Source of the DNA: a phage
Sequence record: NC_101837.1
Length of the DNA stretch: 64,000 bases
Reading direction: 5' to 3' (one strand)
Shown: in pieces, positions 9,627 through 37,093 of the stretch
Position numbering within the stretch: position 1 is the first letter of the stretch
How the letters are laid out: the number at the start of each line of letters is the position of its first letter
The notes under the pieces: generated by a model
The model's input: only the letters and a program-made list of their open reading frames with translations
Told to the model about the DNA's origin: nothing
Databases searched by the model: none
Translations under genes and position numbers: made by a program

Positions 9627-10630
9627 TATACCTCCTCAGTTTTGTCAACAACTCCACCCACTGTTTCCCCAAGGCCAAGCTCTGTAGTGTAATCACCACC
9701 TTCTATGGTGCCCTTATGATGCACCGTGATCACCTTATAGAAGCCTGTATATTGCTTGCTTTTAAGATAAATAGTGGACTCTGGGAGGATAGCTCCGTTA
9801 AGGCATGTGGTTACAGTAAGGCCAACATCCTCTCTCGGGTTTTTCTTTTTCTTTTTAGATGTCGAACCACCTTTGGCAGCAGCTTTAGCTTTTCGTTTTT
9901 TAGCAGGTTCTGGGTTTTTAGGGGTAGGAGATCCGTGCATCCCAGACTCTGCACTTATTTCAAACACAGAGTCTTTGAACCTTTTTCCAACCTTGGTCCA
10001 ATACAAAGCCCCATCCTGAACGCTAAATGTTGAGTTGGTCAGCCTTGCAAACCTGCGGAGGTTCTCTGCAGTGTTTCCAGAGAAAGCCATAGAGTATTGC
10101 AAAGTCTGGTTTCCAAAACCAACAACCCTACCTTTTGGCAAGTTCATATCCTTCAGTAGGTCATTAAGCACAGAGTTCAGAGGTGTACCTTTCTGATAAG
10201 ATCTTGTGCTTTGGCACTTAATGATGTTCTCAGTGCCATCCCCAAAGATGAACTTAGTTTTTCTGGTCGGACCTTCCCACCTGTCTTCAACAAACTCCAC
10301 AGTTCCGGAGAATATCAACTGGTTCTCATTATCATAGCCAGCTTCAAACATAACTGCAAGGGCATCAGCCTGATGCATATCCAGATAGTTAACTGTATCG
10401 TCAGACAGGTTGTAAACTGTCACATAACCTTTGTTTGGCTCTTTGGTATTGTCCTTTTGTATGTCAAACTCTATATTGGCAGCACCAGTGTCTGAGCTAA
10501 CTTCATAAACTCCGGAATCACTCTCCCCTTTCTTTTCAACAGATTTTGGGATATTGGTTTTTGATTTACCGCCATGTTCTACAGGACGACCAAACAATAA
10601 TCGCCATGTTCTACGTCTGTACTCTGCCAT
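9626..10630 (-). CDS. hypothetical baseplate/tail protein with poly-Lys/Ala low-complexity segment
   Basis: 334 aa; contains KKRKAKAAAKGGSTSKKKKK encoded by a (TTTTTC)n-like tract near 9840-9900. Confidence 0.45.
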   Translation of the reverse strand: MAEYRRRTWRLLFGRPVEHGGKSKTNIPKSVEKKGESDSGVYEVSSDTGAANIEFDIQKDNTKEPNKGYVTVYNLSDDTVNYLDMHQADALAVMFEAGYDNENQLIFSGTVEFVEDRWEGPTRKTKFIFGDGTENIIKCQSTRSYQKGTPLNSVLNDLLKDMNLPKGRVVGFGNQTLQYSMAFSGNTAENLRRFARLTNSTFSVQDGALYWTKVGKRFKDSVFEISAESGMHGSPTPKNPEPAKKRKAKAAAKGGSTSKKKKKNPREDVGLTVTTCLNGAILPESTIYLKSKQYTGFYKVITVHHKGTIEGGDYTTELGLGETVGGVVDKTEEV

Positions 10631-11010
10631 TATTCTAACCCTTGCTGTTCCTTGTAAAGATCAACCGGGGTGCCGTATACAAGTTGTAGCTCAGATCTCG
10701 CCCCAAGGTTATATCTTCCAACCCTGCCCCAATATTGATCGTCTTTAAACGACAGCGCCATCAATCTACCTTTCGGTAAATCGTCTCTGTAATGCAATCC
10801 GTCTAAAATATCTTGACAAGCTGTTACTTTTCTGGTTACTAAAGGGCTGTCACCTACCGGACCAAGAGATAACCACCAGGACTCATCCCTCTCATTCCAT
10901 TGCATACGCATTTCATACGTCTCATTGTCTAAAACAACACGCATGGTTTGATCAGGAAAGCCGTCAATGTCCCACACAAAGGTGATTATGCACCAATCTT
11001 TAAGTTCCAT
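10630..11010 (-). CDS. hypothetical tail protein
   Basis: 126-aa ORF translationally coupled in tail module. Confidence 0.4.
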   Translation of the reverse strand: MELKDWCIITFVWDIDGFPDQTMRVVLDNETYEMRMQWNERDESWWLSLGPVGDSPLVTRKVTACQDILDGLHYRDDLPKGRLMALSFKDDQYWGRVGRYNLGARSELQLVYGTPVDLYKEQQGLE

Positions 11011-30931: not shown

Positions 30932-31282
30932 CTAACCAGTTGTTGACATCCGAATAACTTCTTCTGGTGGCAAAACTTTGGAAAATGTGCATCTTTTACC
31001 TCTCCCTTGTGTGGATGTTTCAACCACTCCTGCACATTCTAAAGTTTTAACGCACGCTGCTGCTTTTGTTTTCTTTATCCCAACATCTGCTGCAATTTTC
31101 CTTGTGCTTGGTGTGAAGCGTGAATTTCCTCCAAGCTTATACCAGTTGTGCAGGTAGCAGTATACGATCTTGTCATACAAGTCAAGAACAACAACCTCTC
31201 CAGTTGTGTCATTCAAAACTTTTGACATAGATAGTATTTCAAGGGGGACTTTAAGATATAGCAGCTTATCCCCATCTTTCAT
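30932..31282 (-). CDS. putative helix-turn-helix DNA-binding protein
   Basis: 116 aa; HTH-like segment TRKIAADVGIKKTKAAACVKTLECAGVV; stop lies ~75 bp from iteron array. Confidence 0.45.
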   Translation of the reverse strand: MKDGDKLLYLKVPLEILSMSKVLNDTTGEVVVLDLYDKIVYCYLHNWYKLGGNSRFTPSTRKIAADVGIKKTKAAACVKTLECAGVVETSTQGRGKRCTFSKVLPPEEVIRMSTTG

Positions 31283-31329: not shown

Positions 31330-31884
31330 TTACTCCCTGCTGTCAATATCAAAACTCATTGCAATACGGTATGCCTCTTCTAATGGTAAGAGTCTTCCCC
31401 ACACATCCCAACCGACATCAAGCTGCCTGCCAAACAACTGTTGTGTGGTTCCGTGAGCATGACCGAACAGTTGGACTGATCCGTGAGGCTTTCTGTTCCA
31501 CTTTGCAAACTGGTAATGGCTCATACAGATCAAATTCTTGTTGTGGCGAAGCTCGTAATAATCTACAACCTCATGACCGAACTCTTTCACAATTCTGACA
31601 GTCGTCCTTGTGTCATGGTTGCCACGAACAAGAATAATATGTCCGTTCAACATATTTAGAATATCTGGAAGTAAGTTGTTGATATTCTTATCATTAGTGC
31701 ACGCAATATCTCCCAAGTGGAACACAGTGTCTGCAGGTGACACAACAGAGTTCCACTCGGCGATGATTCCCGCATTCATACTGTCAAGATTGTGATCATA
31801 CTGAGATCTGTGTTTTTGACATGAATCAAACTCCATGACCCGCTGGTGGAGAAAGTGTGTGTCGCTTGTTACAAAGTATTTCAT
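31330..31884 (-). CDS. calcineurin-like metallophosphoesterase (candidate RNA 3'-phosphatase/cyclic phosphodiesterase)
   Basis: Motifs SDTHF (DxH), GDIA (GDxx), GNHD (GNH[DE]); start at internal ATG 31884 with GAGGA RBS just after stop of upstream gene. Confidence 0.6.
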   Translation of the reverse strand: MKYFVTSDTHFLHQRVMEFDSCQKHRSQYDHNLDSMNAGIIAEWNSVVSPADTVFHLGDIACTNDKNINNLLPDILNMLNGHIILVRGNHDTRTTVRIVKEFGHEVVDYYELRHNKNLICMSHYQFAKWNRKPHGSVQLFGHAHGTTQQLFGRQLDVGWDVWGRLLPLEEAYRIAMSFDIDSRE

Positions 31885-31891
31885 ACATTCC

Positions 31892-32302
31892 TCATTTAAG
31901 TTTAATGCAGTTTTTAAGCTGGCGTTCCATACGATCCACAACCTTGTCTGGAACATCATGAATGCTTTTATTACCGTGGCGGTTTTCAACCACGATCACG
32001 GTATAACTATACCCATGACTGATTGCCATGTCAACATATTCCTGCACATGTTTTTCTTTTGTAAACGTATTACTTACCACGATACGGTCGTATCCCATAC
32101 GCATCATATCTTCTACGTTATCTTTGCACCATTTTGCTGCGAGTGTTACTTTACTTGCATCCCAGTTGTAATTGCCGTCATCGTCATACCAGAACATGTC
32201 GTTCTCAAAATGTGGATACAGACCCTCTAAAGATAGCGCATTTGCCAGTGTTGATTTGCCAGACCCTGGTAGACCACGCACGATATATAGCATTTTAGAC
32301 AT
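31892..32302 (-). CDS. P-loop polynucleotide kinase-like protein
   Basis: Walker A GLPGSGKST; start at ATG 32302 preceded by GGAGGG; kinase-domain-sized; adjacent to phosphoesterase and divergent from RNA ligase. Confidence 0.55.
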   Translation of the reverse strand: MSKMLYIVRGLPGSGKSTLANALSLEGLYPHFENDMFWYDDDGNYNWDASKVTLAAKWCKDNVEDMMRMGYDRIVVSNTFTKEKHVQEYVDMAISHGYSYTVIVVENRHGNKSIHDVPDKVVDRMERQLKNCIKLK

Positions 32303-32402
32303 AGTGACCCTCCGTTTTAATTTCAACGGTAGTATACCTAACTGTTTTGTTAATTTCAAGTGTTGACACTAGGTTATTTGTGTGGCAGGATAGACTGACA
32401 AA

Positions 32403-33338
32403 ATGACAAATGAGGAACATATAATGAAGTATTTTAATGCAGACGACCTAGTTGACAAAGGTCTTGTAACCAGTAGGTATTACCCAGATCTCGGGTTAAA
32501 GATCTATAAATATGCTAGAAAAGTATTTTACAACAATTTATGGCATTTGTCCCCTCGTTTACTGGAGTGCCGAGGCATTGTTGTAGGTAATGAAGGAAAT
32601 GTTGTGGCATGGCCCTTCACAAAAGTGTTTAACTTGGGAGAAAACTCCACCAACCTGCCTGACAATAAGCTTGTGACTGCGGTAGAGAAAAAGAACGGAT
32701 TCCTTGGTGTGGTATCATCTCATAAAGGTGACCTATTGTTCTCAACAACCGGGTCTCTTGATTCTCCATATTGTAACCTTGCAAAGGAAACCATCCAAGA
32801 GCAATGTGGTAATTTAGATCTTATCAAGAAGGTTATGGGCAATGAAAACATGACATTCATGTTTGAAATTTGTCACCCTTCAGATCCGCATATTGTTCAA
32901 GAAGACCATGGCGCATATTTGATAGGTTGCAGATATAATGATTCTGGAATAATGCTACCAGAAGCAGCTTTAGATGGGATTGCCAAATACCTTGGTGCAA
33001 AACGTCCTCACACTGTGCGTGAAATCCCGTTCAGCTATGCAAAAGAATTAGCCGCAGAAACAAGGGGCGAAGGGTATATGATCCGTAAGCCTTACTACCC
33101 TTATGACCTGCAGCTGAAGATCAAGTCTCCATACTACCTGGCACGGAAGGCCGTAATGAGGGGTAAAGCTTGGAAGATTTGGGATGATGATATCTTTAAA
33201 CGTGTTGACGAAGAGTTTTACGGCATGGTAAACTTCATTCGTAACAATTACACAGAAGATGTGTGGAACTGCCTCCTGGAGCAGGAACGCCGTGAGATAC
33301 TTGACTGCTATTTCCACAACGAGGACTATATGCAATGA
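32403..33338 (+). CDS. RNA ligase, T4 Rnl1-like
   Basis: Segments LLECRGIVV, KVFNLGEN and VEKKNGFLG (Kx[DN]G nucleotidyl-transferase motif I) match my recollection of T4 RnlA; 311 aa. Confidence 0.65.
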   Translation: MTNEEHIMKYFNADDLVDKGLVTSRYYPDLGLKIYKYARKVFYNNLWHLSPRLLECRGIVVGNEGNVVAWPFTKVFNLGENSTNLPDNKLVTAVEKKNGFLGVVSSHKGDLLFSTTGSLDSPYCNLAKETIQEQCGNLDLIKKVMGNENMTFMFEICHPSDPHIVQEDHGAYLIGCRYNDSGIMLPEAALDGIAKYLGAKRPHTVREIPFSYAKELAAETRGEGYMIRKPYYPYDLQLKIKSPYYLARKAVMRGKAWKIWDDDIFKRVDEEFYGMVNFIRNNYTEDVWNCLLEQERREILDCYFHNEDYMQ

Positions 33339-33685
33339 AGAAGTTGATTGTGTGGCTGGATGACTTGAGAGATCCGTCAAATTACGGGCTCCAAGACGCT
33401 GTTTGGCTAAAGAATTCCTCCGAGTTTATAGATTTTATTAACGATAATAGAAAGCTCTACAGACGCGTTTCTGAGTGGCATATGGACAACGACCTTGGAG
33501 AGGTATTCGAAGGGTACGATTGCCTATCTATGTTGGAGGAAAAGTTTGTATTTGGTAAGCCTCCTGTAGTTGACAACGTGAAGATTTTCGTGCATACTTC
33601 TAACCCATCAGCGGCTCGTAAATTCATGCTTGCGGCTGACTCGTTTAAAAAGTTTGGAATAGAGATTAAACAAAACATCTACTGA
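33335..33685 (+). CDS. hypothetical protein, possibly flavodoxin/receiver-like fold
   Basis: 116 aa; start overlaps Rnl1 stop (ATGA); weak pattern similarity to CheY-like receiver (KKLIVWLDD...VHTSN...K) - speculative. Confidence 0.35.
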   Translation: MKKLIVWLDDLRDPSNYGLQDAVWLKNSSEFIDFINDNRKLYRRVSEWHMDNDLGEVFEGYDCLSMLEEKFVFGKPPVVDNVKIFVHTSNPSAARKFMLAADSFKKFGIEIKQNIY

Positions 33686-33693
33686 GGACACTT

Positions 33694-34455
33694 ATGCGAC
33701 GACTGATTGTTATCTCCGGTGCTGGTTTGAGTGCTGAATCTGGTATTCCCACTTTCCGATCTGGTAGCACTGCAATGTGGGAGAATTTCAGCATCGATGA
33801 GGTGTGCAACATCCACACCTTTGCCAAGAACTACTATAAGGTGCATGACTTTTACAATGCACGTCGTGTAGCTTTAGGCAGTGTTGAGCCTAACCTTGCA
33901 CATCTTCGGATCGCTGAGTGGTATTCCCGCTGGTCTGGTCGTGTGATCAACCTTACCACCAATGTAGATGATTTGCTGGAGCGTGCTGGTGTAAAACATG
34001 AAGATATTTTACATGTCCACGGGTATTTGCCAGAAATAGTCTATGAGGACGATGAAGGAAGTGACGTCATTAAGGACATTGGATACTCTGAGGTAGACGC
34101 AGGAAAGTATACCTGGGTTAAGCCTAATGTGGTGTTCTTCGGAGAAGTAGCTCCGAAGTATACAGACATGTATGACCTGTTGACTTCTCTTACGAGCAAT
34201 GATATGGTTATCCTTGTAGGGTGCTCCAACACAGTTATCAATTTTAACTGGGAGCTATTCCCTGCCTGCAATAAGGGAACAAAACTGCTGATCGTTAACA
34301 AATACGACTCACAGCAGCTAGGGGAGAATGGCATTTCACGTAGTGATATTTACCAATATGAGGATCGCGGCATCCCAGTTTGGTTTAACGGGGCGGTTGA
34401 TGCTTTCTCTGATAAAACATTCATTGAGACCGTAGAAAACTTTATGGAATTTTAA
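33694..34455 (+). CDS. Sir2-family (sirtuin-like) NAD-dependent enzyme
   Basis: Signature GAGLSAESGIPTFRSG, TTNVDDLLERAG, HVHG (catalytic His), KPNVVFFGE; no zinc-ribbon CxxC pairs. Confidence 0.8.
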   Translation: MRRLIVISGAGLSAESGIPTFRSGSTAMWENFSIDEVCNIHTFAKNYYKVHDFYNARRVALGSVEPNLAHLRIAEWYSRWSGRVINLTTNVDDLLERAGVKHEDILHVHGYLPEIVYEDDEGSDVIKDIGYSEVDAGKYTWVKPNVVFFGEVAPKYTDMYDLLTSLTSNDMVILVGCSNTVINFNWELFPACNKGTKLLIVNKYDSQQLGENGISRSDIYQYEDRGIPVWFNGAVDAFSDKTFIETVENFMEF

Positions 34456-34468
34456 AAGGAGACCTTTA

Positions 34469-35182
34469 ATGCTGAATACCAAATTAATTGACAACCTGGA
34501 AAAACTGTCCCAACCTGAAAACTACCTTTGGTCTGCCAACTGGGTGGAGAACTGGAACCGTGTGGCAGCTAAAGTGAAAAAATCATACACACCGTTCGAA
34601 TTACAGCTTAGCTTCATTGAGGAAGAGTTCAATGAAGTTTTGGAAGAGCTGGAGAAAGGTGATGGTGGAGATCACCTGCTAAAAGAGGCCTGCGATCTTC
34701 ACGTTGTCACAAGTTATGCCACTTATCTTGTTAATGACAATCACGAAAAGTGGTCAAGCCTGTTTGATAATCCACAGGGTCTTAAGTTCAAGATCGGTGA
34801 GTTCTATGATACCCTGATCGCTGCGAAAAACACACCTAAGCAAAGAGCGTCAGCTTACCGCTTAGCGGAGTTGTCAACAGCTTTGCTGTTCCAGCTTCGC
34901 GGCGATGTGTGCGGGATGATGCGTAAGGTTCTCAAATCGAATGACAGTAAGTTTGCACGGGTCAACCATCTACGGTATTCACACGGTGCCGGTGCAGATA
35001 TGCCTGCTGAACAACTCATCGAGTTGGAGATTAAAGATCTTGAGCGACGCTTTGATGGTAGATATGAAGGTTTTGTTGCTAAGGAAGAGTTCTACAACGG
35101 TAATAAAGTTATCATATTCCTTGACAGTAAAGGTAAGATCATGAAGCCTTCGAGCTTCAAGGATGTAACAGAGTATATTTAA
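34469..35182 (+). CDS. putative MazG-like all-alpha NTP pyrophosphohydrolase
   Basis: EEEFNEVLEELEKGDGGDHLLKEACDL resembles MazG E-x-x-E/D metal-binding helix pattern; 237 aa. Confidence 0.4.
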   Translation: MLNTKLIDNLEKLSQPENYLWSANWVENWNRVAAKVKKSYTPFELQLSFIEEEFNEVLEELEKGDGGDHLLKEACDLHVVTSYATYLVNDNHEKWSSLFDNPQGLKFKIGEFYDTLIAAKNTPKQRASAYRLAELSTALLFQLRGDVCGMMRKVLKSNDSKFARVNHLRYSHGAGADMPAEQLIELEIKDLERRFDGRYEGFVAKEEFYNGNKVIIFLDSKGKIMKPSSFKDVTEYI

Positions 35183-35215
35183 CAACATAGCCGGGATTAC
35201 CCGGCTTTACTTGTT

Positions 35216-35554: not shown

Positions 35555-35810
35555 TCTTGCTAAACCTGTAGAAGCACACCAGTTTGACGGAAGCTCTTCA
35601 TCAGTATCTGATCTGCAACGGTGGATTGATACAGGTGTGTTTACATCGTCACCTGTTCGGACCAGAGATCTTCGTCGCATGTGTGAGCTTGTAGAGCCGT
35701 TTGGTAACCTAGTCTTGTACCAGGGAGATTGGTTAGTTGACTTTATGGGAGACTGGTTGGTAATGAGTAAAGAAGAGATGTTTAAAATTTTTAAGGAAGA
35801 GGCCGAGTAA
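35541..35810 (+). CDS. hypothetical protein
   Basis: 89-aa ORF; stop overlaps ligase start. Confidence 0.4.
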   Translation: MPLFNLAKPVEAHQFDGSSSSVSDLQRWIDTGVFTSSPVRTRDLRRMCELVEPFGNLVLYQGDWLVDFMGDWLVMSKEEMFKIFKEEAE

Positions 35811-37093
35811 TGCATCAAATCAAAACAACACTGTACGCACTGAATAAAGATGGCAGCTACCAACAGTGGAAAGTATTCACGGATGGTGATAAGGTTATCG
35901 TAGAGTTTGGCAAGCTTGATGGTAAACTGCAATACAAAGAGACGATCTGCACACCTAAGAACGTTGGTCGCGCCAATGAAACTACAGCTGAGCAACAGGC
36001 CGAGCTGGAAGCGATCAGTAAGTGGGAAAAACAGGTCCGACTTGGGTACGTGGAGAGTATGGAAGATTGTGAGCAAGGTGTTGATCTTCTACCCATGTTG
36101 GTGCATGACTACCTGAAGCGTGGCAAGGCACTTAAATTACCTTGCTGGATCTTGCGTAAGTTAGATGGCCTTCGTCTACTTGTTGTTTTCCAGAATGGTG
36201 AGCCTAAATTTATTTCCCGTGGTAATAAGTCCTACCCTATTCAAGGAAAGCTTCTGGAGCAACTTCGCTCTTTCCACCTAACCACCGGGATTAAACAGCT
36301 CGACGGAGAGCTCTATATTCATGGTCTTCCTCTGCAGAAAATAGTGTCTCTTGCTAAACGGTGGCGCACACAGGAAGAAATTCAGGCCGAGATCGATAAA
36401 GACTACAAGGCAGATAAAAAACGCCGTCAGGCTGCGATTAAGGCAGGTTTAGCAACATACAAAAACTTCAACAAGATGGACATTCCTGTTGATGTTGAGC
36501 CTGTTCGTGATGATTTGCGTTACGGAGGGTACTGCAGCTACGACTTGGAGTATCATATTTTCGATATTCCTAGCGATAAGGTGTGGTGGGATCCTGAAAC
36601 AGAGTCTGGACGCTGTAAGGATCTTATGGAGGCAAATGGTGCTATTGCTTCTTTGATGCTTGATCATATTAAGGTTGTTGATGCAGAGCTTGCATACACA
36701 GTTGATCGGTGCGAAGAGTCTGTTGGTATATTTATGTCTGAGGGATATGAAGGTACCATTATGCGTAACTTCTGTGGTAAATATGAGTATGGTCAGCGAA
36801 CATCTGAAGCATTGAAATGGAAAAAGTTCAACGACGCAGAGGTGAAAGTTATTGACGTTGAGAAAGATAAGAATGATGAAGGTGTTCTTATCTGTGTTGA
36901 CAAGGAAGGTGTTGTTGTTAAAATGAAGATGAAAGGCACGCACGAGGAGCGTAGCTATGACAGGATGCAGGAAATGATCGGCAAGTTTGTCACCTTCAAA
37001 TATCAAGCAAGGACAGAAGACAACAACTACCAATTCCCTGTCGGTATCTGCGTCCGAAATGTTAACCCAGACACTTGGGAGGTGCTGGAATGA
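35810..37093 (+). CDS. ATP-dependent DNA ligase
   Basis: 427 aa; motif I KLDGLR (KxDGxR) and OB-fold-sized C-terminal region. Confidence 0.8.
   Translation: MHQIKTTLYALNKDGSYQQWKVFTDGDKVIVEFGKLDGKLQYKETICTPKNVGRANETTAEQQAELEAISKWEKQVRLGYVESMEDCEQGVDLLPMLVHDYLKRGKALKLPCWILRKLDGLRLLVVFQNGEPKFISRGNKSYPIQGKLLEQLRSFHLTTGIKQLDGELYIHGLPLQKIVSLAKRWRTQEEIQAEIDKDYKADKKRRQAAIKAGLATYKNFNKMDIPVDVEPVRDDLRYGGYCSYDLEYHIFDIPSDKVWWDPETESGRCKDLMEANGAIASLMLDHIKVVDAELAYTVDRCEESVGIFMSEGYEGTIMRNFCGKYEYGQRTSEALKWKKFNDAEVKVIDVEKDKNDEGVLICVDKEGVVVKMKMKGTHEERSYDRMQEMIGKFVTFKYQARTEDNNYQFPVGICVRNVNPDTWEVLE

Follow-up and report, generated by a model that had tools for sequence, protein, structure and literature searches.

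Does a compact group of genes in the phage sequence record NC_101837.1 encode a system for the repair of broken RNA, and if so, which genes belong to it and which chemistry would they perform? The window examined here is the whole stretch of 64,000 nucleotides taken from this record. The question was raised by an initial annotation of positions 31,330 to 33,338, which proposed that a divergently arranged kinase, metallophosphoesterase, and Rnl1-like RNA ligase together heal and seal tRNAs cut by host anticodon nucleases. The 4.3-kb stretch around this locus is 98.7% identical to Escherichia phage JeffSchatz (Bas55), and the locus DNA is kept at 90-99% identity in 121 phage records, nearly all of which are rV5-like Vequintavirus. 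As judged by these sequence matches, the window represents a Vequintavirus, an rV5-like coliphage.

We conclude that the locus probably encodes a phage RNA break-repair (“heal and seal”) system that would restore tRNAs cut by host anticodon nucleases or by other metal-independent RNases. The system is not new, because it is already annotated in sequence records and has been published as a prediction. The gene coordinates agree nearly base for base with those of record MK373780 (phage HdK5), and related records label the three genes phosphoesterase, polynucleotide kinase, and RNA ligase. Furthermore, Iyer, Burroughs, Anantharaman, and Aravind (2022, Viruses 14:1977, PMC9503650, section 3.7.3) computationally predicted a sirtuin-centered RNA-repair neighborhood whose type 2 is “prototyped by Escherichia phage V5 and Proteus phage Mydo.” The phage group is the same, as is the gene set (sirtuin, T4-like tRNA ligase, cREC, nucleotide kinase, MazG-family pyrophosphatase, and calcineurin-like phosphoesterase), and by this correspondence the window locus is a member of the type 2 neighborhood. 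The two computational studies differ in emphasis, in that the phosphoesterase is occasional and the sirtuin central in the published description, whereas our survey yields the reverse, with the triad of kinase, phosphoesterase, and ligase as the core. The general logic of combining a kinase, a phosphoesterase, and an ATP-grasp ligase was also set out in a survey of jumbo phages by the same group (PMC7824862).

Linkage of kinase, phosphoesterase, and ligase genes across phages

To learn which genes travel together, we collected 80 IMG/VR loci carrying relatives of the window ligase (down to 37% identity) and searched their open reading frames (ORFs) with iterated profiles of the window proteins. 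Lineages were counted by keeping one entry per 70%-identity ligase cluster with at least 3 kb of flanking sequence on each side (n = 32). A kinase gene lies within 2 kb of the ligase gene in 28 of these 32 lineages, a phosphoesterase gene in 27, and both in 24. Within 7 kb of the RNA ligase, an ATP-dependent DNA ligase is found in 13 of the 32 lineages (48 of 85 loci), a sirtuin in 4, a MazG-like gene in 4, and cREC in 3. The kinase, phosphoesterase, and ligase thus form a widespread core, and the sirtuin, cREC, and MazG-like genes are a lineage-restricted add-on. These three additional genes are linked to the ligase in the group of 145-kb phages, where cREC adjoins the ligase and the MazG-like gene occurs in the same loci as Sir2.

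The linked genes are nearly always on the ligase strand, but their order varies (phosphoesterase-ligase-kinase, kinase-ligase-phosphoesterase, or ligase-kinase-phosphoesterase), which indicates that linkage itself has been selected and was not simply inherited with one ancestral arrangement. The divergent layout is peculiar to the rV5 group, whereas other loci carry the three genes co-directionally. The association also takes the form of fusion proteins of 421-432 amino acids (aa), with the kinase N-terminal to the ligase, in 12 IMG/VR loci (L046, L047, L051, L053, L054, L057, L058, L060, L063 at 9527-10825, L064, L066, and L068), in which AAA_33 and RNA_lig_T4_1 domains are both present. A PHROG of 737-aa proteins likewise combines an N-terminal kinase with a C-terminal ligase. 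The fusion loci hold no phosphoesterase gene within 10 kb, and 3' healing there must therefore be carried out by something else.

Distant ligases are part of the same triad in three independent cases, namely on a phage-like contig of 148 kb, in Vibrio phage 5P1c, and in Pseudomonas phage PE09. In the reverse direction, a locus search run with a 10-sequence alignment of the phosphoesterase identified an Rnl1-type ligase within 4 kb in 14 of 24 phosphoesterase lineages. The phosphoesterase is thus often, but not always, tied to the ligase. The central claim of the initial annotation, that the three genes form one healing and sealing set, is borne out by the 12 fusion loci and by the flanking kinase and phosphoesterase genes in most distant lineages, although three parts of that reading were not upheld.

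Several of the surveyed neighborhoods have unusual content. In Pseudomonas phage PE09 (L004, 7001-12944), the ligase-kinase pair lies beside PRPP synthetase-like and NAPRTase-family genes for salvage of nicotinamide adenine dinucleotide (NAD), which is another link of the repair module to NAD metabolism. One 3.5-kb contig (L003) carries two inverted copies of the ligase-kinase pair and is probably an assembly artifact. In a lineage whose phosphoesterase has no nearby RNA ligase (L106, 3402-6555), the gene sits beside genes for DUF2828/DUF7788 and dual-specificity-phosphatase-like proteins.

Gene identities and catalytic motifs at the window locus

The three ORFs proposed originally were found at the expected positions and on the expected strands, and each has Pfam and PHROG matches to the family named for it. 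The right boundary at 33338 did not hold, because it cuts through an operon and leaves out the cREC, sirtuin, and MazG-like genes. All six genes of the repair neighborhood fall within 31330-35182, and its features are as follows.

31330..31884, minus strand: binuclear metallophosphoesterase of the aq_1665-like clade, 184 aa (Pfam, PHROG)
31892..32302, minus strand: P-loop mini-kinase, 136 aa (AAA_33, PHROG)
32303..32423, no strand: divergent intergenic region of ~121 bp with a sigma-70-like promoter for the kinase arm
32424..33338, plus strand: ATP-dependent RNA ligase with an Rnl1-type nucleotidyltransferase domain, 304 aa from the ATG at 32424
33335..33685, plus strand: cREC (cyclic-phosphate-processing receiver-like) protein, 116 aa (Pfam, PHROG)
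33694..34455, plus strand: sirtuin, CobB/SIRT5-like, 253 aa (Pfam SIR2, PHROG)
34469..35182, plus strand: homologue of MazG-like all-alpha nucleotide pyrophosphohydrolases, 237 aa (weak assignment)
35189..35206, plus strand: intrinsic-terminator hairpin, 7-bp stem with 6 GC followed by a T-run

The ligase gene heads a four-gene operon (ligase, cREC, Sir2, and MazG-like) that is closed by the terminator at 35189-35206, which is also annotated in MT682716 and MK373780. The start of cREC overlaps the ligase stop codon. A gene for an ATP-dependent DNA ligase follows at 35810-37093, parted from the operon by the terminator and two small ORFs.

On the minus strand, the kinase arm has a promoter at 32359-32331 (TTGAAA-17-TATACT) that matches 10 of 12 positions of a sigma-70-like consensus and is likewise predicted in record MT682716, and the ribosome-binding site GGAGGG lies 5 nt ahead of the kinase ATG at 32302. 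For the ligase arm, the divergent intergenic region contains no canonical sigma-70 match, only a TTGACA at 32363-32368 that lacks a properly spaced -10 element. Two in-frame ATG codons (32403 and 32424) could start the ligase, and GenBank records differ in their choice. No Shine-Dalgarno sequence lies upstream of 32403, which is the start given in the initial annotation, whereas a GAGGA at 32412-32416 lies 7 nt upstream of 32424. Because the Shine-Dalgarno sequence is present only there and MK373780 takes the same start, 32424 is the most likely start. As a consequence, the two arms do diverge from a shared region as proposed, but this region measures ~121 bp rather than roughly 100 bp.

The ligase scores 55.4 bits against Pfam RNA_lig_T4_1 (cut-off 28.3; 1e-14) and matches phrog_562 at 3e-66. 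Single-sequence searches of PDB with the ligase or the kinase returned nothing useful, whereas family profiles gave matches. A profile of 35 ligase homologues (~300 aa each, 41-50% identical to the window ligase) matched T4 Rnl1 at 1.7e-13 over T4 residues 51-250, which is the nucleotidyltransferase domain only. The query began at 32421, and ligase residue numbers are thus one higher than those counted from Met-32424. Residues R51, K68, F70, K90-x-N92-G93, E149, E217-G218, and K233-x-K235 align to R54, K75, F77, K99, E159, E227-G228, and K240/K242 of T4 Rnl1. They are invariant in 80 distinct homologues except that F70 is Y in one, and they comprise the covalent nucleotidyltransferase motifs I, III, IV, and V together with the Rnl1-specific upstream Arg, Lys, and Phe. 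Motif I reads KxNG in place of the KxDG of T4 Rnl1, and ~68 residues forming four helices follow motif V. The Rnl1-like label thus fits the nucleotidyltransferase motifs but does not extend to the C-terminal tRNA-binding domain, nor to the RnlA equivalog model (NCBIfam TIGR02308), against which the protein scores 38.7 bits with a cut-off of 242.25. By these comparisons, the protein joins a catalytic domain of Rnl1 type to a short C-domain of another kind and belongs to a distinct and large phage clade. Our searches found no characterized member of this clade.

The kinase matches AAA_33 (42.5 bits, 1e-10), phrog_2071 (3e-58), and the “polynucleotide kinase” phrog_505 (5e-10), and belongs to a family of stand-alone P-loop proteins of ~130 aa with at least 8000 scored relatives. 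Its Walker A motif, GLPGSGKS, occupies residues 10-17, and the family also has SNTF and ENRH motifs. Among 32 homologues, G10, G13, G15, K16, T18, D35, N78, T79, E106-N107-R108-H109, and H115 are invariant and S17 is nearly so. From its position and from the literature, we take D35 to be the equivalent of the catalytic aspartate of T4 (Asp35) and Cth (Asp38) kinases. When compared to PDB, the family profile gave weak matches to a Rhizopus kinase (2.6e-6), Pnkp1 (7e-5), the L-seryl-tRNA(Sec) kinase PSTK (1e-4), T4 Pnk (2e-4), and CthPnk (2e-3). Those to Pnkp1, PSTK, T4 Pnk, and CthPnk are full-length, whereas nucleotide kinases match through the P-loop only, at E ~0.01 or weaker. By these matches, polynucleotide and tRNA kinases, and not nucleotide kinases, come closest to it among proteins of solved structure. 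The protein is a candidate polynucleotide 5'-hydroxyl kinase. The profile searches by which the family assignments could be checked thus returned the anticipated AAA_33, Metallophos, and RNA_lig_T4_1 matches, and did not place the kinase or the phosphoesterase among unrelated families. No HAD (DxDxT) acyl-phosphatase domain is present in the 136-aa kinase ORF, which holds AAA_33 only, unlike the kinase-phosphatase fusion of T4.

The phosphoesterase exceeds the Pfam cut-offs for both Metallophos_2 and Metallophos and matches phrog_547 (“phosphoesterase”) at 2e-51. Its metal-ligand set (DxH, GD, GNH(D/E), H, GH, and GHxH) is complete, and D8-x-H10, G58-D59, G88-N89-H90-D91, H123, G141-H142, and H144 are invariant or nearly so in 36 homologues. 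The protein falls in the aq_1665 clade and not in the lambda-phosphatase/Pnkp clade. It is a candidate for the enzyme that heals the RNA 3' end, which would carry a 2',3'-cyclic phosphate or a 3'-phosphate.

Among the partners, cREC is identified by Pfam cREC_REC (56.5 bits, 4.7e-15) and phrog_1479 (4e-35), and this family has been predicted to be a metal-independent cyclic phosphodiesterase (PMC9503650, PMC7824862). The sirtuin matches Pfam SIR2 (96.2 bits, 3e-27) and phrog_2162 (9e-109), and NCBIfam deacylase models match it, but below their cut-offs. Its alignment to E. coli CobB (1s5p) at 1.5e-21 shows GAGLSAESGIPTFR and HVHG. It therefore retains the NAD-binding motif GAGxSxxSGIPxFR and the catalytic His of HxHG, and all four zinc cysteines of CobB are replaced. 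PADLOC reported no defense-Sir2 match for the sirtuin and no informative match for any of the six proteins. The MazG-like protein matches phrog_671 (“nucleotide pyrophosphohydrolase”) at 1.9e-21 and Pfam PRA-PH only at E = 0.1; the gene is assigned to the MazG superfamily in PMC9503650.

Transposon insertion maps of phage Bas54 (HIDEN-SEQ preprint) cover the orthologues of all six genes, with bas54_0206 to bas54_0211 corresponding to the MazG-like protein, sirtuin, cREC, RNA ligase, kinase, and phosphoesterase. These genes receive 88-405 mean reads per TA site (192 for the ligase) and are dispensable on E. coli K-12, which fits conditionally useful counter-defense genes. An essential morphogenesis role of the ligase, like that of T4 gp63 in tail-fiber attachment, was also considered and is ruled out by the tolerance of insertions in the Bas54 orthologue. 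Directly downstream of the phosphoesterase, at 30932-31282 on the minus strand, is a gene for a helix-turn-helix (HTH) protein (DUF6945/HTH_36; phrog_12838 “replication initiation protein,” 5e-80). Its Bas54 orthologue, bas54_0212, has a mean of 13.6 reads, far below the six repair genes, and may matter for growth.

Predicted repair pathway and its alternatives

In the pathway that we favor, the mini-kinase would place a phosphate on the 5'-OH end of the broken RNA, and the binuclear metallophosphoesterase would open and remove the 2',3'-cyclic phosphate or 3'-phosphate to yield a 3'-OH. The Rnl1-type ligase would then react with ATP through Lys90 of motif I (KxNG) and seal the ends. The partners found in rV5-like phages, namely cREC, the zinc-less sirtuin, and the MazG-like protein, most likely broaden the range of ends that can be repaired, through opening of cyclic phosphates and NAD-dependent removal of 2'-phosphates, with nucleotide by-products being cleared. 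What the sequences show is the identity of the genes, their intact catalytic motifs, the operon structure, the conserved linkage, and the kinase-ligase fusions, whereas all of the activities, the RNA acted upon, and the way in which the phosphoesterase and cREC share the work are inferred. Most lineages possess the triad but neither cREC nor the sirtuin; the triad is thus probably self-sufficient, which favors T4-type chemistry. The three partners missed by the initial annotation may nevertheless change the chemistry, since they have been tied to the processing of cyclic phosphates and 2'-phosphates (PMC9503650).

A number of observations weigh against this pathway. The aq_1665 clade is uncharacterized and has no assigned substrate, and the nearest characterized structural neighbors of the phosphoesterase are LpxH, YfcE, MJ0936, and the DNA nuclease MPE. 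The namesake from Aquifex aeolicus (PDB 1xm7) is a cellular structural-genomics protein with no assigned substrate or context, and thus offers no function to transfer. The kinase lacks an Arg three residues past the catalytic Asp (Arg38 in T4, Arg41 in Cth), a residue that contacts the 5'-terminal nucleotide; all members of the family instead have an aromatic residue (W, F, Y, or H) at position 38. Missing from the ligase is the Rnl1-specific C-terminal domain (T4 residues ~255-374, 120 aa), to which tRNA specificity is ascribed. In about 40% of the phosphoesterase lineages, no RNA ligase gene lies within 4 kb, and in three loci (L109, L134, and L138) the phosphoesterase accompanies cREC or Sir2, MazG, and an ATP-dependent DNA ligase, with no RNA ligase or kinase within 6 kb. 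The accessory genes in these loci may have a role that is independent of RNA sealing. In the comparison rows of the HIDEN-SEQ data, for which the host is not identified, insertions in the six genes show no depletion (log2 fold change +0.1 to +0.4, q of at least 0.75). Finally, literature searches returned no biochemical or genetic test of these Vequintavirinae genes.

The same proteins could instead follow yeast-type (Trl1-like) chemistry. In such a scheme, cREC and/or the phosphoesterase would open the cyclic phosphate to 3'-OH,2'-PO4 and the ligase would recognize and require the 2'-phosphate and leave it at the sealed junction. The sirtuin, or host KptA in phages that have none, would then move the junction phosphate to NAD+, and cREC and the MazG-like enzyme would dispose of the resulting ADP-ribose 1'',2''-cyclic phosphate. 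We regard this scheme as unlikely, although several points speak for it. Iyer et al. (PMC9503650) proposed that the sirtuin of this neighborhood acts like KptA/Tpt1 in removing 2'-phosphates and assigned to cREC, calcineurin-like proteins, and further enzymes either the opening of the cyclic phosphate or the processing of ADP-ribose cyclic phosphate. A Trl1 ligase ranked first in a Foldseek search with the window ligase, and the ~68-aa, four-helix C-domain is nearer in size to the 79-aa, five-helix domain of Trl1 than to the 120-aa domain of T4. There is also precedent for the phosphoesterase step, in that a mutant of a Pnkp-type metallophosphoesterase gives only 2'-NMP from cyclic phosphates.

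In fungal Trl1, the 2'-PO4 (sulfate) site consists of Asn150 (from motif I, KxNG), His227, Arg334, and Arg337, with His227 nine residues past the motif III Glu and the two arginines at +9 and +12 from Lys325. The window ligase has N92, H157 (+8 from E149), K243 (+8 from K235), and R247 (+12 from K235), all of which are invariant in the 80 sequences, and T4 Rnl1 has Asp and Ile at the positions of the first two. However, this match is one of motif spacing against published spacings and not a structural superposition, one position is Lys instead of Arg, and the offset of the His differs by one residue. Moreover, sequence profiles put the ligase nearer to T4 Rnl1 than to Trl1, for which the ligase profile gives no match even at E = 10. 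Because cREC or Sir2 is nearby in only 3-4 of the 32 ligase lineages, most phages with this ligase would need a host 2'-phosphotransferase. In its broadest form, the proposal would make the whole clade of ~300-aa ligases the viral counterpart of tRNA ligases from fungi and plants in end specificity, accepting 3'-OH,2'-PO4 ends through an Asn/His/Lys/Arg pocket, with the phosphoesterase and/or cREC as cyclic phosphodiesterase and the sirtuin or host KptA removing the junction 2'-phosphate with NAD+. This extension is doubtful, but if true it would supply a natural substrate for KptA-type enzymes of E. coli and a new sirtuin reaction, RNA 2'-phosphotransfer.

Two further explanations dispense with RNA repair as the shared task, and both fit poorly with the fusion of kinase to ligase and with how closely the three genes are spaced. 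The kinase and phosphoesterase might be general end-processing enzymes that, like PNKP-type enzymes, work mainly in DNA repair or replication alongside the DNA ligase at 35810-37093, with RNA repair secondary or absent. This is improbable, even though T4 Pnkp works on DNA and RNA alike, DNA ligase genes are frequent within 7 kb of the RNA ligase as counted above, some loci that lack an RNA ligase hold the phosphoesterase and a DNA ligase, and the DNA nucleases MPE/PdeM, Mre11, and SbcD are among the structural neighbors of the phosphoesterase. In the loci examined, kinase fusions involve the RNA ligase but never a DNA ligase, the spacing is 0-1 kb to the RNA ligase compared to 1-4 kb to the DNA ligase, and the terminator and two small ORFs intervene before the DNA ligase in the window. 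It is very improbable that the genes do not cooperate at all, with the ligase acting as a gp63-like tail-fiber attachment factor while the phosphoesterase and the sirtuin break down nucleotide signals of host immunity or molecules derived from NAD. The label “RNA ligase and tail fiber protein attachment catalyst” does occur in PHROG and in several GenBank records, and phage calcineurin-like phosphodiesterases and NAD-processing enzymes have been proposed to act against signaling defenses (PMC7824862). However, the label has been carried over from T4, insertions in the Bas54 ligase are tolerated, the catalytic residues of the ligase are invariant, and the close linkage and fusions argue for a shared pathway.

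The predicted heal-and-seal pathway can be compared with three known systems. In T4, Pnkp (pseT) and Rnl1 (rnlA) counter the PrrC anticodon nuclease. The window locus resembles this pathway in that 5' kinase, 3' healing, and ATP-dependent sealing activities (here predicted) are phage-encoded and dispensable on ordinary laboratory hosts. Unlike T4 Pnkp, however, the window kinase stands alone, and 3' healing is assigned to an unrelated metallophosphoesterase in place of the HAD domain; the ligase differs from T4 Rnl1 in its C-terminal part and in motif I. For cREC, the sirtuin, and the MazG-like protein, we know of no counterparts among the characterized components of T4 repair.

Bacterial Pnkp-Hen1 systems (Clostridium thermocellum Pnkp; Capnocytophaga Pnkp1-Rnl-Hen1) share these three types of activity and likewise pair a P-loop kinase with a binuclear metallophosphoesterase instead of a HAD phosphatase, and the kinase profile weakly matches Pnkp1 and CthPnk, as noted above. 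In contrast to the single trifunctional polypeptide of bacterial Pnkp, the phage locus has three separate genes on two strands, and no Hen1/methyltransferase domain was detected among the ORFs scanned (29.7-37.1 kb). Because the phosphoesterase lies outside the Pnkp clade, the likeness extends only to the kind of fold. The initial annotation had described a separate calcineurin-like phosphatase as the arrangement seen in bacterial Pnkp; the fold is of that kind, but the clade is not. Overall, that reading was reasonable but incomplete, and its Pnkp comparison was superficial.

Fungal and plant Trl1 (ligase-kinase-cyclic phosphodiesterase) with Tpt1 resembles the phage module in the linkage of kinase and ligase, which in some phages are fused in kinase-ligase order, and in the short helical C-domain. 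In both cases an NAD-using enzyme is encoded alongside, and the four invariant residues, whose motif spacing parallels that of the 2'-PO4 site, may be a further likeness. Unlike Trl1, the phage locus has no 2H cyclic phosphodiesterase, with cREC or the metallophosphoesterase in its place, and it has a sirtuin instead of Tpt1/KptA.

Cleavage of tRNA is among the major strategies of bacterial immunity (as in PrrC, RloC, PARIS, and certain retron and Cas13 effectors), and to our knowledge T4 Pnkp and Rnl1 are the only phage repair answer that has been biochemically proven. The module predicted here would be a second, widespread, and structurally different heal-and-seal kit, occurring in numerous lineages of phages whose hosts are Escherichia, Klebsiella, Pseudomonas, and Vibrio. 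Among its carriers are Vequintavirinae of the BASEL collection, which are open to genetic manipulation. Its characterization would give substrates for the aq_1665 phosphoesterase clade and for the very large mini-kinase family, and would also probe the predicted cREC activity and the predicted RNA 2'-phosphotransfer by the sirtuin.

The tRNA genes near the locus

The repair genes had been described as adjacent to a tRNA cluster. Seven tRNA genes are indeed nearby, at 27580-28392 on the same strand as the phosphoesterase, but they lie 2.9 kb beyond it with several small ORFs between. Their presence at this distance counts in favor of the proposed tRNA repair. The cluster includes a 99-nt tRNA-like gene at 27825-27923 on the minus strand, which ARAGORN reports as “tRNA-???” with a 4-base anticodon and Rfam scores at 29.4 against 29 bits. 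It folds into a cloverleaf with the anticodon loop UUUUUAA, read as Lys-UUU, and is annotated as tRNA-Lys in MZ501082. Its anticodon stem has 4 bp with a G.G mismatch, and its variable arm is a long hairpin. Because tRNA-Lys(UUU) is targeted by PrrC and PARIS, the gene could encode a nuclease-resistant replacement tRNA. Annotations also differ for the tRNA with a CAT anticodon at 27668-27742 (minus strand), which is tRNA-Met according to ARAGORN and MK373780 and tRNA-Ile for the ATA codon, implying a lysidine modification, according to MZ501082.

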